From Escherichia coli (GTDB taxonomy: Bacteria; Pseudomonadota; Gammaproteobacteria; Enterobacterales; Enterobacteriaceae): 64,000 nucleotides of DNA. Both the position numbers and the translations under genes were made by a program. The DNA lies in the NCBI RefSeq assembly GCF_048403405.1, contig NZ_CP183129.1, one strand, 5' to 3'. The notes beneath the pieces are model-generated. The model ran no database searches, had not been told where the DNA came from, and worked only from the letters and a program-made list of their open reading frames with translations. Numbering within the stretch: the first letter of the stretch is position 1; each line of letters opens with the position of its first letter. Positions 1,393-15,317 of this stretch are shown here, piece after piece.

Positions 1393-3329
1393 AACCCACT
1401 TTATATACTGCTACTGGTGAGTGCGTTACGCCAGGCTGTGAACTGGGCAAAGGTGGCGAAGGCGCGGTTTATGATATCGAGGAGTTTGTCGATAGCGTCG
1501 CCAAGATTTATCACACGCCGCCACCCGCCTTAAAACAGGACAAACTTGCCTTTATGGCTGCGACAGCTGACGCACAGTTGCTGAATTATGTCGCCTGGCC
1601 GCAGGCAACGCTTCACGGTGGACGAGGCGGAAAAGTTATCGGTTTTATGATGCCAAAAGTTTCTGGTAAAGAACCGATTCATATGATCTATAGCCCGGCA
1701 CATCGTCGCCAGAGTTACCCTCATTGTGCGTGGGATTTTCTACTCTATGTTGCGCGTAATATTGCTTCATCTTTTGCTACGGTTCACGAGCACGGGCATG
1801 TCGTGGGTGACGTAAACCAGAACAGCTTTATGGTAGGCCGTGACAGCAAAGTGGTGTTGATTGATAGCGACTCCTTTCAGATTAACGCCAACGGCACACT
1901 GCATTTATGCGAAGTCGGCGTGTCGCATTTTACGCCGCCAGAGCTGCAAACCTTGCCATCATTTGTCGGCTTTGAACGCACCGCGAATCACGATAATTTT
2001 GGCCTTGCGTTGCTGATTTTTCACGTCTTGTTTGGTGGTCGGCATCCTTATTCCGGTGTACCGCTTATCTCTGATGCGGGTAATGCGCTGGAGACGGATA
2101 TTGCCCATTTCCGTTATGCCTACGCGTCAGATAATCAGCGACGTGGTTTAAAACCGCCGCCACGATCTATTCCGCTGTCGATGTTACCGGGCGATGTTGA
2201 AGCCATGTTTCAGCAGGCATTCACGGAAAGTGGCGTGGCAACCGCGCGTCCGACGGCAAAAGCGTGGGTAGCGGCACTTGATTTACTACGCCAACAGTTA
2301 AAGAAATGTACCGTTTCGGCAATGCATGTTTACCCCGGTCATTTGACTGACTGCCCGTGGTGTGCGCTGGATAATCAAGGCGTTATCTATTTTATTGATC
2401 TCGGCGAAGAGGTCATTACCACCGGCGGTGATTTTGTGCTGGCGAAAGTCTGGGCAATGGTGATGGCGTCAGTAGCACCACCAGCATTGCAACTGCCATT
2501 ACCCGATCATTTCCAACCGACTGGCAGGCCGCTTCCTTTAGGCCTGTTACGGCGTGAATACATCATTCTGATTGAGATCGCACTGTCAGCGTTATCGCTG
2601 CTGCTTTGCGGCCTTCAGGTAGAACCGCGTTATATCATTTTGGTTCCCGTGCTGGCGGCTATCTGGATTATTGGCAGCCTGACAAGCAAAGCGTACAAAG
2701 CAGAAATCCAGCAACGTCGTGAGGCGTTTAATCGCGCGAAAATGGACTATGACCATTTAGTAAGCCAGATCCAACGGCTGGGCGGGCTGGAAGGTTTTAT
2801 CGCCAAACGGGCGATGATCGAAAAAATGAAGGACGAAATTCTCGGGTTACCGGAAGAGGAGAAACGCGCTCTGGCAGCACTTCATGACACTGCAAGGGAA
2901 CGGCAGAAGCAGAAGTTTCTGGAGGGATTTTTTATTGATGTTGCCTCTATTCCCGGCGTTGGCCCTGCGCGTAAAGCGGCGTTACGGTCTTTTGGTATTG
3001 AAACAGCCGCAGATGTTACCCGTCGTGGCGTTAAGCAAGTGAAAGGGTTTGGCGACCATCTGACCCAGGCGGTTATCGACTGGAAAGCGAGTTGTGAACG
3101 CCGTTTTGTGTTCAGGCCGAACGAAGCGGTAACGCCTGCAGACAGACAAGCGGTACTGACTAAAATGGCCGCCAAACGACATCGGCTGGAATCGACGTTG
3201 ACTGTCGGCGCGACAGAGTTGCAGCGATTCCGCCTTCAAGCTCCAGCACGGACCATGCCGTTGATGGAACCGTTACGTCAGGCGGCAGAAAAACTGGCTC
3301 AGGCGCAGGCTGAATTAAGCCGTTGCTGA
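1380..3329 (+). CDS. yegI: Ser/Thr protein kinase-like membrane protein with C-terminal helix-hairpin-helix region
   Basis: 649-aa ORF; N-terminal kinase-like GKGGEGAVY glycine loop and HGDV/DSDSF motifs; two hydrophobic segments mid-protein; tandem GhG hairpins (IPGVGPARKAAL, VKGFGDHL) near C-terminus; alternative ATG start at 1389. Confidence 0.75.
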   Translation: MVTMKPTLYTATGECVTPGCELGKGGEGAVYDIEEFVDSVAKIYHTPPPALKQDKLAFMAATADAQLLNYVAWPQATLHGGRGGKVIGFMMPKVSGKEPIHMIYSPAHRRQSYPHCAWDFLLYVARNIASSFATVHEHGHVVGDVNQNSFMVGRDSKVVLIDSDSFQINANGTLHLCEVGVSHFTPPELQTLPSFVGFERTANHDNFGLALLIFHVLFGGRHPYSGVPLISDAGNALETDIAHFRYAYASDNQRRGLKPPPRSIPLSMLPGDVEAMFQQAFTESGVATARPTAKAWVAALDLLRQQLKKCTVSAMHVYPGHLTDCPWCALDNQGVIYFIDLGEEVITTGGDFVLAKVWAMVMASVAPPALQLPLPDHFQPTGRPLPLGLLRREYIILIEIALSALSLLLCGLQVEPRYIILVPVLAAIWIIGSLTSKAYKAEIQQRREAFNRAKMDYDHLVSQIQRLGGLEGFIAKRAMIEKMKDEILGLPEEEKRALAALHDTARERQKQKFLEGFFIDVASIPGVGPARKAALRSFGIETAADVTRRGVKQVKGFGDHLTQAVIDWKASCERRFVFRPNEAVTPADRQAVLTKMAAKRHRLESTLTVGATELQRFRLQAPARTMPLMEPLRQAAEKLAQAQAELSRC

Positions 3330-3341
3330 GCCAGTTTTCAA

Positions 3342-4694
3342 TTAACGAAACACCACTTCCGCCCAGCGTGCCAGCCCGGCGGTGACGGAGCCAAAGTCAT
3401 CGCCGCCTGCAATCGGAATGCCCGGCAACTGTTCTGCCAGCGCCTTTTTAATCAGCGGTGAACGGGCGCTACCGCCGGTCAGGTAGATAACGTCCGGTTT
3501 TTCCTGGGCGTTATCCAGGGCCAGTTGCACCTGTTCCAGAATCCGCGCCAGTGGCTGGCTGAGGGCGCTTTCCAGCCCTTGCTGGCTAATCAGCGTAGCC
3601 AGTTCATCGCTGATAAACGGCAGTGAGGCGCGGGTTTCCGCTACGCTTGAAAGCGCAATTTTGCTCTCTTCTGCGCTACGTACCAGGCGATAGCTTAAAC
3701 GCTGACGCCAGACTTTCTGTAACAGGGCCACTTTTTCCGGTTCGCGGGCATCGCGTACCAGATCGTTAAGCAGACGACCGTTGGCACTACTGTAGAAATC
3801 ACTTTGCGCAGGGACGTCGTTGATGGCAACCGCATTCCACCACGGCAGAATCGGCAGGGCGATGCCTTTTTCGGTTTCGCCCCCCATGCCCAGTAACGGC
3901 ATCAGGTTTTTAAACGCCAGTGCGATATCCAGATCGTTACCGCCAATACGGCAACCACTGTGACCCAGCAGGCTGGCTTCACGATCGAGACGCGAACGCC
4001 ACTGCGGCCCCATCAGCAGCAATGAACAGTCAGTCGTACCACCGCCGATATCCACCACCAGCACCCGTTTTTCTTCCTGCAAGGTGGCTTCGTAATCCAG
4101 CCCAGCCGCGACCGGCTCGTACTGGAATACCACATCCTTAAACCCGGCACGCTTCGCCGCGCGTTCCAGAATCCCCTGCGCCTGGGTGTTTGCTTCATCG
4201 CCGCCAAGCCCCTGGAAGTTGATAGGGCGACCAATTACCGCCTGAGTAATCGCATCCGGCAGCTGTGCCTGCGCCTGCTGGCGAATGTGCAACATCATTG
4301 CGCAGACCAGATCCTCAAACAGCGCTACCTGCTGCGGTTTTAAGCCGCTGGCACCGAGGAACGATTTTGGTGATTTCACAAACCACACTTCTTCTGGATC
4401 ATCAATGTACTGTGCCAGTGAGGAAAGACCGAACTGCACGCTTTTCGCCGTAACATCGATATCTTCTTCGCGGTTATAACGAATCGCCCGACGCAACAGC
4501 GCCTGCGTTTCATCGTCGTCTGCCGGAACATCATGATGGCGGTACAGCCATTCGCTTACCGCTTCACGCGTTGGCGCGCAAAGCATTGAAGGCAGCAGCG
4601 TGCTGTCGTTTTCCATTTTCAGTAATTGCGGCTTACCGTCGCGCATGACCGCCACTGAACAGTTTGCTGTACCGTAATCAAAACCAATAAACAC
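3342..4694 (-). CDS. yegD: Hsp70/actin-fold ATPase family protein
   Basis: ORF 3342..4757; likely GTG start at 4694 (VFIGFDYGTANCS, DnaK-like N-terminus); VVDIGGGTTDCS motif. Confidence 0.8.
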   Translation of the reverse strand: MFIGFDYGTANCSVAVMRDGKPQLLKMENDSTLLPSMLCAPTREAVSEWLYRHHDVPADDDETQALLRRAIRYNREEDIDVTAKSVQFGLSSLAQYIDDPEEVWFVKSPKSFLGASGLKPQQVALFEDLVCAMMLHIRQQAQAQLPDAITQAVIGRPINFQGLGGDEANTQAQGILERAAKRAGFKDVVFQYEPVAAGLDYEATLQEEKRVLVVDIGGGTTDCSLLLMGPQWRSRLDREASLLGHSGCRIGGNDLDIALAFKNLMPLLGMGGETEKGIALPILPWWNAVAINDVPAQSDFYSSANGRLLNDLVRDAREPEKVALLQKVWRQRLSYRLVRSAEESKIALSSVAETRASLPFISDELATLISQQGLESALSQPLARILEQVQLALDNAQEKPDVIYLTGGSARSPLIKKALAEQLPGIPIAGGDDFGSVTAGLARWAEVVFR

Positions 4695-4827: not shown

Positions 4828-5685
4828 ATGTATACCCTGAACTGGCAGCCGCCGTATGACTGGTCGTGGATGTTGGGATTTCTCGCCGCCCGTGCGGTGA
4901 ACGGTGTGGAAACGGTCGCTGACGATTATTATGCCCGTAGTCTGGCGGTGGGCGAATATCGCGGCGTGGTGACTGCTATTCCGGATATAGCCCGCCATAC
5001 TCTGCACATAAATTTAAGTGCAGGTTTAGAACCTGTTGCCGCAGAGTGTCTGGCGAAAATGAGCCGCCTGTTTGATCTGCAATGTAACCCGCAGATTGTT
5101 AACGGTGCGTTGGGCAAGTTAGGCGCGGCGCGGCCCGGATTGCGTTTACCCGGCAGTGTTGATGCTTTTGAGCAGGGCGTGCGGGCGATTTTAGGCCAAC
5201 TGGTGAGCGTGGCGATGGCGGCAAAATTGACCGCCAGAGTGGCACAGCTTTATGGCGAACGGCTGGATGATTTTCCGGATTATGTCTGCTTCCCCACGCC
5301 TCAGCGGCTGGCAGCAGCCGACCCGCAGGCATTAAAAGCGTTAGGTATGCCGTTGAAACGGGCAGAGGCGCTGATTAATCTGGCAAATGCGGCGCTGGAG
5401 GGCACCTTACCAATGACAATTCCGGGCGACGTAGAGCAAGCGATGAAAACGCTGCAAACTTTTCCGGGTATCGGGCGCTGGACGGCGAATTATTTCGCCT
5501 TACGTGGCTGGCAGGCGAAAGATGTTTTCCTGCCGGATGATTATCTGATTAAACAGCGATTTCCGGGAATGACACCGGCACAAATCCGCCGTTATGCCGA
5601 ACGCTGGAAGCCCTGGCGTTCTTATGCGCTGTTGCATATCTGGTATACGGAAGGCTGGCAACCAGACGGAACGGACGAATTGTAG
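4828..5685 (+). CDS. alkA: 3-methyladenine DNA glycosylase II
   Basis: 285-aa ORF matching AlkA N-terminus MYTLNWQPPYDWSWML and HhH-GPD region. Confidence 0.9.
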   Translation: MYTLNWQPPYDWSWMLGFLAARAVNGVETVADDYYARSLAVGEYRGVVTAIPDIARHTLHINLSAGLEPVAAECLAKMSRLFDLQCNPQIVNGALGKLGAARPGLRLPGSVDAFEQGVRAILGQLVSVAMAAKLTARVAQLYGERLDDFPDYVCFPTPQRLAAADPQALKALGMPLKRAEALINLANAALEGTLPMTIPGDVEQAMKTLQTFPGIGRWTANYFALRGWQAKDVFLPDDYLIKQRFPGMTPAQIRRYAERWKPWRSYALLHIWYTEGWQPDGTDEL

Positions 5686-5722: not shown

Positions 5723-8700
5723 TCAGTTAATCGCGAAATAACTGCTATTCACCAGCAAATCCAGCGGTTGGGCATCGGCAATCACATCGCCATAAATCAG
5801 ATCGACGCCGATGCCAGAAAGCGTATCCATCACCAGGGGTAAAACTACTGGCCCGGCGATGGTCTTCATCCCGAGCCGCTGAGCGTGCCCCTGAATGATC
5901 GTAATCAGCATCTCATCCATCAAATTTCCCTGCACGTTGGCGCATAACTCACCATCAAGTAGCAGGTAATCTGCCATATTCGCTTTCAGCGAGTTGAAGA
6001 TTTGCAGATCGCGGCCCACCTGACTGAATACGATCCGACATCCCGCCAGCCGCAGTTTTTGCACGTTTTCTGCGTGATCTAAAATCGCGTCTGCCGGAAT
6101 AATCAGATGTAATAACCGTGGTGGTAGAGGGCTATTTTCCAGCTGCTCAATTAGTTCATTCACCAGCGTGGCGCTACTCAAACCGGCAACGGAAAGCGGG
6201 AGGGCGATGCTTATACCTTTACTGGCAACCGCTTTGGCGGCCTGCTGGAAAAAATCGTGGAATACCCGTCGGTCAAGAGCATGGCTAAGTGCCGGATCGC
6301 TGAAGCTACGACGAAATGTTTGTTCATCAATAATCTCGCCTTCGCAACTCCAGAGCTTAAGTGAAATCAGCCACAAATTACGCGCTTGCGGGATCCGCGG
6401 CGAAGCGACACCGTGGGCGATCATCATCAACTGATTCTCTTTAATCATCCGCCACTGTTCATCAAGCGACATCACCGCCCGTTCGCTATTTGTGGCAGCT
6501 TGCTGCGGTTCGTAAACCGTCACCCGGCCCCGTCCACCATTTTTGGAGGCATAACAGGCGATATCGGCCTGCGACATCACTTCAGCCGCCTGATGATTGT
6601 TGTCATCAATCAAGGTAATCCCGGCACTGGCACCTACCCGATGTACTCGTCCTTCCCAGATAAAGTGATAGTCATTCACGGCGCTGATAATGCGTGTAGC
6701 GATAAAACGCGCACTTTCGACATTACAATCTGGCAGCAGCAGACCAAATTCATCGCCACCGAGTCGCGCCAGCACGTCGCTGGAGCGCAGCATACTCAGC
6801 ATCAATGACGCCAGTTCGCGCAGTAAAGCGTCGCCAGCGGCGTGCCCGGCGCTGTCATTCACCGCTTTAAAGCGATCAAGATCGATAAACACCAGTGCAT
6901 GTCGCTGATGTGTACTGTTTACCGTTTGCAGCAGGATGCGTAGTTGCTTCTCAAAACTGGCGCGATTGGCGAGATGCGTCAGTGCATCATGGGAGGCGCT
7001 GTAGCTCAGCTGGCGCAGCATTTTGCGCGATTCGGTGACGTCCTGAATCACCAGAACCGAACCAATATTGCTGCCGTCCAGAGTACTTAACGGCGTAATA
7101 CTGTAATGCACGTCGTAGCTGCCGCCGCTTCGGCAGTGCAACACCACATCTTGTTCAATCGCGGAACGTGAGGTGTCGGCACTGTAAATGTTCTCCATTA
7201 ATGGTCCGTTGTCGCCAAAAGTAATATGCAACACCGTCAGGAGCGGAACACCTAACGCTTCTTCCTGCGTCCAGCCGCTCATCTTCTCCGCCACCGGATT
7301 CATAAAGGTAATTTTCATCGCCATATCAATACAGACCACGGCTTCACCGATGGAATCAAGCGTAATGTGCAGGCGCTCTTTTTCCTGAAACAATGCCTCG
7401 TTAAGCTGTTTAACCTCGGTCATATCCATATTAATGCCGAGCAGACGTTCGACTTCGCCTTCTTTATTCAGTACCCGGTTGGCGAGGGCGCGGATATGGC
7501 GGATGCCATCTTTCACGGCAATGCGAAATTCCAGCTTAAAGGGCGAGCGTGATTGCAATGAATCGCGAATCACTTTTTCGGCGTGCTGGCGATCTTCCGG
7601 CAGCACGCACTCGTACCACACCTGCCAGTTCGGTTTGATATGCGGAGGAATTTCATACAGCTCGAACATCCGCTTATCCCAGCTAAAAATATTCGGCTTT
7701 AGCTCCCACTCCCAGATGCCAATCCCGCCCGCTTCGTTAGCCAGCGTGATGCGCTCCATCAGTTGCTGATTCACCTGTTCGGTGCGTTTTAGCTCGTTAA
7801 TGTCTTCAATCTGAGCGATAAAATAGAGCGGCGTACCATCGGTGTGGCGCACCAGTGAGACGGCAAGCAACGCCCAGACAACATCGCCATTGCGGTTGTA
7901 GTAGCGTTTTTCCATTGAATAGGTGTTTATTTCACCGCTGATCAGCTTTTCAACCTGTTGCAGATCTTTATTGAGATCCTCCGGCCAGGTCAGTTGCTGA
8001 AAGGTGAGTCCGCGCAGCTCTTCCTGACTGTAACCGAGAAACTGGCAGAGTGCTTTGTTGGATTGCAGCCATTGCCCCTCGGTGCCCACTAATGCCATGC
8101 CGATGGCGGAATATTCCATGGCGTTACGAAAACGGGTTTCGCTTTCGGAAATGTGTTTGCGTTCCGCACGAAAGGCATACATCACCATGGTCATGATGTT
8201 GGCGGGCAGCAGGATCAGCAAAAACGGTAGCCACGGCATATGGCTCATCAGGTATGTACGCGGCGTAGCAAGCAGGGAGGGATCCGCGGCCATCATCAGT
8301 GACACCATCATCACCGTGGTAAGGAAGATCAAAAAGGCTTCCATTCGTGGCAGGCGCACGGCGCTCCACATCAACAGCACAATAATGAAAGTAAAAGGCC
8401 ACGGCAGATACAGCATCGAAAGCCAGCTTAACGTCAGTGTGATGGCTAACGTGAGCAGCGACTCAAAAAGCAACCGTGGGTTGCGATGGCGCAGCAGATA
8501 GTGTGGTTTAAATAACAATCCCAGCGGCACCAGTGCCAGTGCGCCGATGGATTCTGACAGTACCCATATCAAAAATGCCCTGAGAGGATCGTCTCCGGGC
8601 GTCAGCAGGATAACCAGAACACCCCCTAACAGAGGTGGAACAATGGCGCTGCCGAGTGCCAGACGCAGCCAGTCAGCCAGATTTTGCAATGGGTTATACC

Positions 8701-10693: not shown

Positions 10694-12547
10694 ATGAGAC
10701 GATTTCTGACGACGCTGATGATACTCCTGGTCGTGCTGGTGGCCGGGTTATCTGCGTTAGTGTTGCTGGTGAATCCGAATGATTTCCGCGACTATATGGT
10801 CAAGCAAGTTGCTGCACGTAGCGGTTATCAATTGCAGCTCGACGGGCCACTGCGTTGGCACGTCTGGCCGCAGCTTAGTATCCTCTCCGGGCGAATGTCT
10901 CTCACCGCCCAGGGCGCGAGCCAGCCACTGGTTCGCGCCGACAACATGCGTCTGGACGTGGCGCTTTTACCACTACTGAGTCATCAACTGAGCGTTAAGC
11001 AGGTGATGCTAAAAGGGGCAGTGATCCAACTGACGCCGCAGACGGAAGCGGTGCGCAGTGAAGACGCTCCGGTTGCACCGCGCGACAATACCTTGCCGGA
11101 TCTGTCAGACGATCGCGGATGGTCGTTTGATATATCCAGTCTTAAGATGGCGGACAGCGTGCTGGTGTTCCAGCATGAAGATGACGAGCAGGTGACAATC
11201 CGCAATATCCGCCTGCAAATGGAACAAGATCCCCAACATCGTGGCTCATTTGAGTTCTCCGGGCGGGTTAATCGCGATCAGCGCGACCTCACGATATCCC
11301 TTAACGGTACGGTAGATGCTTCTGATTATCCGCATGATTTAACGGCGGCTATTGAACAAATTAACTGGCAGTTGCAGGGTGCAGATTTACCAAAACAAGG
11401 TATTCAGGGGCAGGGGAGTTTCCAGGCCCAGTGGCAGGAGTCACATAAACGCCTTTCATTTAACCAAATTAGTTTGACCGCCAATGACAGTACGCTGAGC
11501 GGGCAAGCACAGGTCACGCTGACAGAGAAACCGGAATGGCAGCTGAGACTGCAATTCCCGCAACTGAATCTTGACAACCTCATCCCGCTTAAAGAAACAG
11601 CGAACGGTGAAAACGGTGCCGCGCAGCAAGGGCAGAGCCAATCCACGTTGCCGCGCCCGGTCATTTCTTCGCGTATTGATGAACCGGCCTATCAGGGATT
11701 GCAAGGCTTTACGGCTGATATTTTGTTGCAGGCCAGTAACGTGCGCTGGCGCGGAATGAATTTTACAGATGTTTCCACGCAAATGACCAACAAGTCGGGT
11801 TTGCTGGAAATTACTCAACTGCAGGGCAAGCTTAACGGTGGACAGGTTTCGCTGCCGGGCACGCTGGACGCGACATCAATAAATCCGCGGATAAACTTCC
11901 AGCCACGGCTGGAAAACGTTGAGATTGGCACCATTCTGAAGGCGTTTAACTATCCGATTTCGTTGACTGGAAAGATGTCACTGGCTGGTGATTTCTCCGG
12001 TGCTGACATAGATGCCGACGCATTCCGCCACAACTGGCAAGGACAGGCACATGTCGAAATGACCGACACACGCATGGAAGGGATGAACTTCCAGCAGATG
12101 ATTCAGCAAGCGGTAGAACGTAATGGTGGTGATGTGAAGGCCGCTGAAAACTTCGATAACGTAACGCGTCTTGACCGCTTTACCACCGATTTGACGTTGA
12201 AGGATGGCGTCGTGACGTTAAACGACATGCAAGGTCAATCGCCAGTGCTGGCGCTGACAGGGGAAGGCATGTTGAATCTGGCAGATCAAACCTGCGACAC
12301 CCAGTTTGACATTCGTGTGATTGGTGGCTGGAACGGAGAAAGCAAACTGATTGATTTCCTCAAAGAAACGCCAGTACCGCTGCGGGTTTATGGCAACTGG
12401 CAGCAACTCAATTACAGCCTGCAAGTGGATCAGTTACTGCGCAAACATCTACAGGACGAAGCGAAACGTCGCCTGAATGACTGGGCCGAGCGGAATAAAG
12501 ATTCCCGCAATGGCAAAGATGTGAAGAAGTTGCTGGAGAAGATGTAA
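10694..12547 (+). CDS. asmA: Outer membrane assembly protein AsmA
   Basis: 617-aa ORF with N-terminal signal anchor; position between dcd and yegH. Confidence 0.85.
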   Translation: MRRFLTTLMILLVVLVAGLSALVLLVNPNDFRDYMVKQVAARSGYQLQLDGPLRWHVWPQLSILSGRMSLTAQGASQPLVRADNMRLDVALLPLLSHQLSVKQVMLKGAVIQLTPQTEAVRSEDAPVAPRDNTLPDLSDDRGWSFDISSLKMADSVLVFQHEDDEQVTIRNIRLQMEQDPQHRGSFEFSGRVNRDQRDLTISLNGTVDASDYPHDLTAAIEQINWQLQGADLPKQGIQGQGSFQAQWQESHKRLSFNQISLTANDSTLSGQAQVTLTEKPEWQLRLQFPQLNLDNLIPLKETANGENGAAQQGQSQSTLPRPVISSRIDEPAYQGLQGFTADILLQASNVRWRGMNFTDVSTQMTNKSGLLEITQLQGKLNGGQVSLPGTLDATSINPRINFQPRLENVEIGTILKAFNYPISLTGKMSLAGDFSGADIDADAFRHNWQGQAHVEMTDTRMEGMNFQQMIQQAVERNGGDVKAAENFDNVTRLDRFTTDLTLKDGVVTLNDMQGQSPVLALTGEGMLNLADQTCDTQFDIRVIGGWNGESKLIDFLKETPVPLRVYGNWQQLNYSLQVDQLLRKHLQDEAKRRLNDWAERNKDSRNGKDVKKLLEKM

Positions 12548-12558
12548 GACAAGTTATG

Positions 12559-12597
12559 CAGATGGCGGCGTCAATTTGTCGCCATCTGTATTTATAG
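12559..12597. terminator. Hairpin between convergent asmA and antitoxin gene
   Basis: cagatggcg / cgccatctg 9-bp inverted repeat with 12-nt loop, followed by tatttata. Confidence 0.4.
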
Positions 12598-12599
12598 CA

Positions 12600-12908
12600 C
12601 TAAGCAGCATGTGGATATTGAATTTCAATACGTTGAATATGCAATCCTGCATGAGCCATCATGGTGATCAATTTATCGATACTAAAGATCTGGATCTTAC
12701 CTCTGGCAAGTTCAGATATGCGAGGTTGAGTGACCCCTAAAGCAGACGCTGCCTGGGCCTGGCTAAACCCTTGTTGTTCAATCCAGTTATTAATGATCGT
12801 TACAAGTTCGGCACGGATCCGCATATTTTCCGCTTGTTCAGGGGTGTCACTCACCGCATCCCACACACTATCAAAGGTTTCAATTTTCATTTTTCCGCTC
12901 CTGAACAA
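12600..12908 (-). CDS. HTH XRE-family antitoxin (HigA-like)
   Basis: 102-aa ORF with HTH FSQAQAASALGVTQPRISELARGK; overlaps the 3' end of the upstream toxin ORF; alternative start at 12890 (MKIETF). Confidence 0.7.
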   Translation of the reverse strand: MFRSGKMKIETFDSVWDAVSDTPEQAENMRIRAELVTIINNWIEQQGFSQAQAASALGVTQPRISELARGKIQIFSIDKLITMMAHAGLHIQRIEIQYPHAA

Positions 12909-13218
12909 GTTCTTTATAGCGTCGTTTGGCTAAATCAACATCCGATTGACTGGTAGTCTGTGTTTTCTTTTGAAAACAATGCAATACGTAAACCGCTTCT
13001 TCAAATTTTGCGATATACATGACGCGATAGATCCCATCAGCATCGCGAGTACGAATCTCTCGCACACCAGGGCCGATAGTTGAAAAAGGTTTCCAGTCGT
13101 ATGGGTTTAACCCTTGTTGGATCCTGTCGAGTTGATAGCCAATTTCCTGTCGAGACGATTCTGGAAATGCGCGTAAATCGTCAAGACTGGTATCAAGAAA
13201 AGCCAGCTTTTTTCTCAT
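12880..13218 (-). CDS. RelE/ParE-superfamily toxin (HigB/Gp49-like)
   Basis: 112-aa basic protein directly upstream of and overlapping an XRE antitoxin (toxin-first HigBA-type order); AGGA ribosome-binding site and TATAAT -10 upstream. Confidence 0.6.
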   Translation of the reverse strand: MRKKLAFLDTSLDDLRAFPESSRQEIGYQLDRIQQGLNPYDWKPFSTIGPGVREIRTRDADGIYRVMYIAKFEEAVYVLHCFQKKTQTTSQSDVDLAKRRYKELVQERKNEN

Positions 13219-13253
13219 TACTCCATCCTTAGATTATACTAAATTTTGTATAA

Positions 13254-13286
13254 ATCAAATGCGCAGTTTGAACCTGCGCATTTGAT
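13254..13286. promoter_or_regulatory. Perfect 13-bp inverted repeat (candidate TA operator and/or yegH terminator)
   Basis: atcaaatgcgcag-tttgaac-ctgcgcatttgat, just upstream of the toxin -10 (TATAAT) and just downstream of the yegH stop. Confidence 0.45.
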
Positions 13287-13292
13287 GTTTTA

Positions 13293-14876
13293 TCACACTT
13301 CGTACTCCATCTCGCCATCCTTACGTAGCGGAATAATTTGCACCTTCTGCACGCGATGGCTTTCCACCTGCAACGTTTTAAGCAAATAATCCCCCACCTG
13401 AACTTCTTCGCCAGGTTTTGGAATACGCTGCAAATATTCCATCAATAGCCCGGCAATGGTGTGATATTCACGTTTTTCATCCAGCGGCAGCGGCACATAT
13501 TGCACCAGATCTTCCAGCGGCATATGACCATTCGCCGTCCAGGAACCGTCGGCATTCTTCTGAATATCATGGCGGGCGTCGATCTCTTCCACTTCATTCG
13601 GTAAGTTACCGGCAATGGTTTCTGTGACGTCACTTAATGTCACAATCCCTTCCACCGAGCCAAACTCATCCACTACAAAAGCAAAGTGTGTGCGGGCATT
13701 ACGGAACTGCTCCAGGGCAGGTAACAACGGCAAGGTTTCCGGGAACACCAGCGGCTGGCGAATCAACACCCGCAGGTTGAGCGGTTCGCCGCGCAGTGAC
13801 TGTTGTAGCAGGTCGATAACGTGAACAACACCGAGCAAATCTTCCGCGTCATCGCCATCAGTAACCACCAGTCGCGTGTGCTGATTTCGCTCCAGCAACT
13901 GGCGGATCTCGTCTTCCGGCGCGTTGAGATCGATATGCTCAATATCGTGGCGCGACGTCATAATGCTGCTGACGGTACGCTGGTTAAGATTAAGTACCCG
14001 CTCAATCATCCGCCGTTCCTGCGGATTAAAGATTTGCTGGTTACCATGATCCACCAGCATAGACGCGGTTTCGGCGTCCAGTTCCGCATCTTCTTTTTGC
14101 CCGCTAAGCAGGCGCATTACCGCTTCGGTAGTCCGCTGGCGCAGCGTCTGGTTAGCGGAAAGAAAACGTCGCCGGTTAAAGATAGCCAACTGATTGAGCG
14201 CCTCGATCATCACCGAGAAACCAATAGCAGCGTACAGGTAGCCTTTCGGAATGACGAAGCCGAAACCTTCTGCCACCAGGCTAAAGCCAATCATCAACAG
14301 GAAGCTTAAGCAGAGAATAACGATCGTCGGGTGACTGTTAACAAATTGCGTTAACGGCTTGCTGGCCATCAACATCAGGCTGATAGCGATAACGACGGCG
14401 GCCATCATGACCAGTAAATGGTCGACCATCCCGACGGCGGTAATCACCGAGTCGAGTGAGAAGATGGCGTCCAGTACCACAATTTGTGTCACCACCCCCC
14501 AGAACTTCGCACCTTTGCGTTGTGTGGGGTTATTGCTGTCTTTCCCCTCCAGCCGTTCGTTCAGCTCCATCGTGGCTTTGAACAGCAGGAAGAAACCACC
14601 AAACAGCATGATTAAATCGCGGGCGCTAAAGGTAAACGAGCGGAAGCTGAACAGCGGTTGAGTCAGGGTGACCAGCCAGGAGATTGACGCCAGCAGTAAC
14701 AGGCGCATTAACATCGCCAGCAGCAGCCCGGTAACCCGTGCGCGGTCGCGCTGCTTCGGCGGTAGTTTTTCGGCGAGGATGGCAATAAAGACCAGGTTAT
14801 CAATGCCGAGGACCAGTTCGATCACAATCAGCGTGATTAACCCGGCCCAGATAGACGGATCGGCAATCCATTCCAT
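13293..14876 (-). CDS. yegH: TerC/CBS/CorC-domain inner membrane protein
   Basis: ORF 13293..14942; likely start [10 protein letters not shown] at 14876 (527 aa); TerC-like TM region plus CBS pair. Confidence 0.85.
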
Positions 14877-15317
14877 AGTAAGTACAAAACCTATTCGTTG
14901 TATGACAAATGTCACAATTCGATCATGGATAAATCGGGGCAAAAATGCAATGTTGCAGCACTATTTATCTCATATTATTTGAGGGTAATAACCTCACATT
15001 ACCCCTGAATTAAAAGTGGTAATAATAAAACATTATTTAAGAAATATCGCATGTGGAGACACTATATTAAATATTGTCAACCTAAAGAAACTCCTAAAAA
15101 CCATATTGAATGACACTTAATATAATTCTTAAAAATAGCCAATTGCCGAATTGTTACCTTGCCTGCTATTCCGTTAGCTGTAACACTTCCTCCTGCATTA
15201 TTGGAGAGCCAATATTCAATTACCATAATGTCACCTTATATTCGGAAGTTAATTTCCGCAATAACCCTTTCTCATCAACGACTGTATGTTGAGAGGGTTT
15301 TAAAAATTAAGCTAAAT

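Follow-up and report, generated by a model that had tools for sequence, protein, structure and literature searches.

A toxin-first Gp49–HTH_37 toxin–antitoxin cassette between asmA and yegH of Escherichia coli and its apparent erosion

Introduction

[quoted passage not shown] In Pfam terms the same combination, Gp49 with HTH_37, is found in toxin-first cassettes carried by Tn3-family transposons such as Tn4662a and Tn5501.12 (PMC7157771). For one Gp49-type system, HigBA2 of the Acinetobacter baumannii plasmid pAB120, the activities have been shown: it has RNase activity, represses its own expression and stabilizes a plasmid (PMC5906591). The Gp49 family is listed among the ribosome-dependent mRNA-degrading toxins with toxin/antitoxin gene order, and differs from the canonical HigB toxins, which belong to Pfam families PF05015 and PF09907 rather than PF05973 (PMC11980606). 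Gp49 toxins of Mycobacterium tuberculosis have been studied in structural detail. HigB1 has a catalytic pocket comprising K58, E66, R68, N73, R77, F93, K95, Q98 and K99, and the long C-terminal helix that is typical of Gp49-like toxins (PMC9098466). The M. tuberculosis proteins HigB2 and HigB3 are both Gp49 toxins and are non-toxic (PMC9098466), and membership of the family is therefore no guarantee of toxin activity.

Here we describe a pair of this kind from a 64,000-nucleotide stretch of the Escherichia coli chromosome (RefSeq assembly GCF_048403405.1, contig NZ_CP183129.1), which is referred to below as the window. Judged by its sequence, the pair is a member of the Tad-Ata/Gp49–HTH_37 (HigBA-like) type II TA family. 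It is already known as an annotated object: wherever the pair occurs, RefSeq labels the two proteins 'type II toxin-antitoxin system RelE/ParE family toxin' and 'helix-turn-helix domain-containing protein'. In open-access papers searched by full text, no experiments on this pair came to light.

The resemblance to the described systems is close in architecture and looser in context. As in Tad-Ata, a COG4679/Gp49 toxin gene precedes a COG5606-equivalent HTH_37 antitoxin gene in one operon; whereas that family is common on mobile elements (plasmids, ICEs, Tn3 transposons and prophages), the E. coli cassette is chromosomal, lies between core genes and has no mobile element around it. The Pfam pairing and the gene order are identical to those of Tn4662a and Tn5501.12, but the transposon cassettes adjoin the res site and the E. 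coli cassette has neither a transposase nor a resolvase nearby. HigBA2 of pAB120 likewise has a Gp49-domain toxin first and an HTH antitoxin second; it differs in being plasmid-borne and in belonging to another Gp49 subclade. The E. coli toxin shares its Pfam family and the long C-terminal helix with HigB1 (Rv1955), which is the toxin of the tripartite TAC system with a SecB-like chaperone; in the E. coli cassette there is no third gene. The canonical HigBA systems of Rts1/Proteus vulgaris and K-12 (HigB, YgjN) also have a RelE-superfamily toxin first and an XRE-HTH protein second, and by analogy with them ribosome-dependent mRNA cleavage would be the activity expected here.

Results

The gap between asmA and yegH comprises 745 bases (12548–13292), bounded by the stop codons of asmA (ending at 12547) and yegH (at 13293), and is entirely filled by two overlapping minus-strand open reading frames, the toxin gene coming first, as the original prediction had described. 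In the RefSeq annotation udk-dcd-asmA lie on one side and yegH-wza-wzb-wzc on the other. The whole gap is 100% identical to that of strain CLSC36 (O1:H42). The toxin gene (12880..13218, minus strand; WP_001227700.1) encodes 112 residues. The prediction of a basic protein agrees with a pI of 9.0 and 20 Lys and Arg residues against 17 Asp and Glu residues. A Shine–Dalgarno sequence, AAGGA (13226..13230, minus strand), stands 7 nt before its ATG at 13218. Further along the window, a 49-residue open reading frame between yegH and wza (15077–15226, minus strand) has the RefSeq annotation 'hypothetical protein' (WP_162829205.1) in all the strains that were looked at.

The antitoxin gene was redefined. 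It had been predicted to encode 102 residues, a length that depends on a TTG start at 12908 without a Shine–Dalgarno sequence. An ATG at 12890 is preceded at a distance of 7 nt by AGGAG (12898..12902, minus strand, within the toxin gene), and gives a protein of 96 residues (12600..12890, minus strand; WP_000687871.1). This is the RefSeq start, and the length equals that of the orthologues in Cedecea and Pantoea (96 residues). Since the Shine–Dalgarno spacing, the RefSeq start and the orthologue length agree, the antitoxin most likely has 96 rather than 102 residues. With this start the end of the toxin gene and the beginning of the antitoxin gene share 11 nt, ATGAAAATTGA (12880..12890, minus strand), an arrangement implying translational coupling of the two genes.

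The toxin matches the Pfam family Gp49 (PF05973) over the complete model (positions 1–90 of 90; 102.3 bits, E = 1.5e-29) and the phage protein family PHROG 2523 (E = 3.6e-36), and has 6712 homologues at E ≤ 1e-5. The score for the NCBIfam model TIGR02683 (HI1419-upstream toxin), 24.8, does not reach the cut-off of 62.85. In the PDB a sequence search with the toxin gave only a marginal match, to Streptococcus pneumoniae HigB (E = 0.019; E = 0.0012 when a profile was used), and a comparison of folds was therefore needed. An AlphaFold (AF2) model built on the homologue alignment has a pLDDT of 92, and predicts a RelE-type β-sheet (strands within residues 42–84) followed by a long C-terminal helix (residues 91–111). 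The top Foldseek match of this predicted model in the PDB is M. tuberculosis HigB1 (TM-score 0.67), represented by a free crystal structure (7awk) and by a ribosome-bound form with cspA mRNA (7nbu). ParE2, S. pneumoniae HigB, RelE proteins and Vibrio cholerae HigB2 follow as lower matches, and the Foldseek probability is 1.0 for HigB1, S. pneumoniae HigB, RelE and HigB2.

The profile alignment between the toxin and HigB1 obtained with hhalign is modest (probability 52%, E = 1.4e-4), with about 25% identity over 55 aligned columns. The HigB1 sequence used in this alignment fits every residue number given in PMC9098466. Six of the eight mapped pocket residues are kept in the toxin: E54, R56, R65, F82, K84 and Q87 align with E66, R68, R77, F93, K95 and Q98 of HigB1. 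The two that are changed are N73, aligned with D61, and K99, aligned with T88. In an alignment of 40 diverse toxin homologues 20 positions are invariant, E54, R56, R65, F82 and K84 among them. At position 88 of the same alignment lysine is absent from the whole enterobacterial clade and present in most of the betaproteobacterial relatives.

The antitoxin is acidic (pI 5.5). Behind a short N-terminal segment it has an HTH_37 (COG5606-type XRE) DNA-binding domain (PF13744, E = 4.9e-22). In the PDB it matches 2a6c (E = 3e-14); the NCBIfam model of canonical HigA (TIGR02607) scores 16.3 bits, below its cut-off of 47.7. Both family assignments made in the original prediction, a toxin of the RelE/HigB/Gp49 type and an XRE-type HTH partner, are thus borne out by the profile searches, which place the first protein in a toxin family and the second in HTH_37. 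The 90%-identity protein cluster of the toxin (705 members) also includes antitoxin sequences of 96 residues; this mixture is probably a clustering artefact, perhaps bridged by a fused or mis-called sequence, and not biology.

A palindrome, TTATAC-N8-GTATAA (13234..13253, minus strand), was found by repeat search 15 nt upstream of the toxin ATG, and a perfect TATAAT box (13238–13233) overlaps its right arm. The sequence TATAC(G/A)AAATTT(C/A)GTATA precedes the orthologues in Salmonella, Cedecea and Pantoea, where it lies in otherwise unrelated DNA. The Salmonella palindrome is identical to that of E. coli, and Cedecea and Pantoea share a perfect 18-bp form, TATACGAAATTTCGTATA. Because the palindrome is kept in four genera amid unrelated flanks, it is likely to be an operator for the HTH antitoxin. 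A promoter scan returned no minus-strand sigma-70 site here, and there is no convincing −35 element upstream of the TATAAT box; the hexamer TTGATT was considered for this role and rejected, as its spacing of 14 nt is too short.

Stable hairpins flank the two genes. The one after the yegH stop codon is an inverted repeat at 13254..13286 (minus strand; −20.6 kcal/mol, z = −6.9), and is likely to be the yegH terminator, which would keep read-through out of the cassette; the Salmonella copy does not share it. The other, between the stop codons of the antitoxin gene and asmA (12556..12591), is predicted on both strands (plus strand −24.8 kcal/mol, z = −5.6; minus strand −16.5 kcal/mol, z = −3.2) and is a likely bidirectional terminator. 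With such hairpins on both sides, the cassette looks like an independent transcription unit.

Relatives of the toxin gene were sought with a degenerate-codon motif, KFEEAVYVLHCFQKK, matched as an exact pattern against one genome per species (GTDB). The scan yielded 76 loci, mostly in Betaproteobacteria, with others in Cedecea and Pantoea. In 63 of the 71 loci with enough downstream sequence a homologous antitoxin gene directly follows the toxin gene, nearly always with an ATGA overlap; the overlap in the window is thus longer (11 nt) than the 4 nt of most relatives. Toxin relatives are also found on plasmids (422 records, 194 of them conjugative) and in prophages, N15 gp49 being one of the latter (32% identity, E = 3e-8). 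Toxins of Mycobacterium abscessus prophages are unusually close for proteins from another phylum, with 56% identity over 94% of the E. coli toxin.

A copy in Salmonella enterica subsp. diarizonae (79% identity) stands in a conjugative-element context and adjoins a second Gp49–HTH pair. Nucleotide similarity between it and the E. coli cassette is limited to window positions 13255 to 12613, which leaves the yegH-side hairpin outside and defines a transferable unit of about 650 bp consisting of the operator/promoter and the two genes. On the diarizonae contig the two different Gp49–HTH pairs (5001–5625 and 6913–7504) are about 1.3 kb apart, surrounded by TraW/TraX-like genes, an exclusion protein gene, an IS110 transposase gene and a TacA1/acetyltransferase TA pair; the region is a small TA cluster.

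The cassette is present at least in part in 910 of 5426 complete E. coli genomes, and at 80% or more of its length in 792. It is nearly always chromosomal and single-copy. O157:H7 and O55:H7 strains carry it, as do many extraintestinal isolates from humans. In K-12 MG1655 asmA and yegH lie tail to tail, separated by a 273-bp spacer that holds no annotated gene and has no detectable similarity to 12548–13292; homology between K-12 and the window ends exactly at the asmA and yegH stop codons. The statement in the original prediction that K-12 has the two core genes adjacent with no genes between them was therefore correct, and the pair is accessory as proposed.

The further proposal, that the pair had been inserted at this site, fared less well. 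Between the window and O157:H7 the identity of the cassette (98.26%) is the same as that of asmA (98.27%) and yegH (98.36%) on either side, and cassette and flank identities are broadly similar in other strain pairs. A repeat search at the borders of the cassette turned up neither direct repeats nor target-site duplications. Several decayed alleles are found at the same position. In the E22 type the toxin promoter and the first 57 codons are replaced by an element of ~389 bp, with the antitoxin gene intact. In the Ec-050-T5 type the toxin gene is put out of frame by the loss of 23 bp, again with an intact antitoxin gene. WB61 retains 104 bp of the antitoxin-distal end adjoining the ~389-bp element, and K-12 has a REP-like sequence and a shortened copy of the element with no TA sequence. 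None of the 76 loci with the exact motif is in an Escherichia species in the one-genome-per-species set; with an exact pattern and a single genome for each species, this is weak evidence of absence. Because the cassette has diverged as much as its core flanks and intermediate alleles exist, we favour a long-standing presence that was later eroded or replaced in other lineages, the K-12 type included; on sequence grounds the cassette looks like an old E. coli polymorphism under erosion and not a recent insertion.

The erosion is asymmetric. Among the 5426 E. coli genomes the 5′ half of the toxin gene is confined to the 792 with the whole module, while the antitoxin side occurs without it in 118; these are coverage counts that leave antitoxin point mutations aside. 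A live toxin would impose just this order of loss, with the toxin going first, and insertion does not readily account for it.

The ~389-bp element (3002–3390 of the E22 locus; its shortened copy makes up most of the K-12 asmA–yegH spacer, at 3487–3700 of that locus) is itself dispersed and unannotated. It occurs in 5418 of the 5426 E. coli genomes, where the median number of places is three and the maximum seven, and has no copy within the window. A sub-threshold match to the Rfam family TwoAYGGAY (RF01731; 31.5 bits against a gathering threshold of 43, E = 0.01) lies at 3146–3289 of the E22 locus, minus strand. The match spans the full model, and two AYGGAY hexamers (ATGGAT and ATGGAC) are seen by eye on the strand complementary to the E22 copy; it may be due to chance, or the repeat may contain a structured RNA. 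In a separate observation on the neighbourhood, two cassette-bearing strains, Ec-050-T5-ESBL and ET625, have galF within about 770 bp downstream of yegH instead of wza-wzb-wzc, and their yegH is unusually divergent (about 94.3% identity to the window). In these strains the colanic acid cluster is apparently missing or lies elsewhere.

Discussion

The reading that we consider probable is a classical type II module, in which a Gp49/RelE-fold toxin acting as an A-site mRNase is neutralized by a co-translated HTH_37 antitoxin that represses the operon at the palindrome. Under this scheme the free toxin would enter the ribosomal A site, cleave mRNA and halt translation. Translational coupling on the shared transcript would supply the antitoxin, which would bind and neutralize the toxin, probably via its N-terminal segment. 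The HTH_37 domain of the antitoxin, alone or together with the toxin, would bind the palindrome over the −10 box and so repress the operon. If, as we presume, the antitoxin is the less stable of the two proteins, losing the cassette or ceasing to express it would free the toxin, giving addiction. Bounded by two terminator hairpins, the cassette would form a transcription unit of its own. The parts of this scheme that we infer are toxicity, RNase activity, ribosome dependence, neutralization and autoregulation; ribosome dependence in particular is suggested by the predicted-fold match to ribosome-bound HigB1 (7nbu) together with the family classification.

The main alternative, which we think unlikely, is that the toxin is attenuated or domesticated, with its RNase activity mostly lost and the pair surviving either as a neutral remnant or as a small complex that binds DNA and is autoregulated. 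T88 and D61 stand where HigB1 has K99 and N73, and the alanine mutants K99A and N73A of HigB1 have strongly reduced toxicity (PMC9098466). The lack of lysine 88 throughout the enterobacterial clade, unlike in most betaproteobacterial relatives, points the same way, as do the non-toxic HigB2 and HigB3 of M. tuberculosis (PMC9098466), the repeated inactivation of the toxin in nature and the few toxin substitutions within E. coli, which are mostly non-synonymous. These substitutions are conservative, however (I69V, V94I and A97D), and the 20 invariant columns in the alignment of 40 diverse homologues, including the catalytic-pocket equivalents E54, R56, R65, F82 and K84, count against attenuation. 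In no genome does the 5′ half of the toxin gene occur without the antitoxin side, a pattern expected of a live toxin. That the toxin is instead a ParE-like DNA gyrase poison is very improbable. Such a role could be read from the generic RefSeq name and from the presence of ParE2 (5cw7) among the fold matches, but the TM-scores of ParE2 (0.43–0.52) are below the 0.67 of HigB1, six of the eight mapped residues of the RelE/HigB-type catalytic pocket are present, the Pfam match is to Gp49 and not to ParE, and the Gp49 family counts among the ribosome-dependent mRNases (PMC11980606). On the fold ranking and the catalytic residues we reject it.

The remaining alternatives concern what the cassette is for and why it is kept. 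We think it improbable that anti-phage abortive infection, over addiction or stabilization, is its primary role. Many TA families defend against phages, the Gp49 toxin family occurs in prophages, and PADLOC gave matches of the antitoxin to the candidate system PDC-M64C (E = 7e-5) and of the toxin to NsnC (E = 0.0024). These matches are weak and involve one protein each, so that there is no convincing match to a defence system, and the neighbours of the cassette are core genes (asmA, yegH and the colanic acid genes) and not a defence island. It is also unlikely, in our estimate, that the cassette is more than a passive passenger: an ancient E. coli polymorphism that O157:H7/O55:H7, many extraintestinal strains and other such lineages retain for some benefit at this position, and that the dispersed repeat of ~390 bp has overwritten stepwise elsewhere. 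Were it so, the cassette might protect the adjacent recombination-prone colanic acid/O-antigen region from deletion, or might serve in abortive-infection defence.

As a discovery the pair has little value, since it is annotated in RefSeq, belongs to a well described TA family and is present in hundreds of E. coli genomes, O157:H7 included. What the present analysis adds is a corrected antitoxin start, a conserved putative operator, a minimal unit of about 650 bp and evidence for toxin-first erosion. The cassette is an uncharacterized E. coli member of the Gp49 family that is easy to test. Its alleles also provide a natural series of TA decay, running from the intact cassette through a frameshifted toxin gene, a truncated toxin gene with the antitoxin gene kept and a 104-bp remnant to nothing at all, which illustrates the toxin-first loss of chromosomal TA cassettes.
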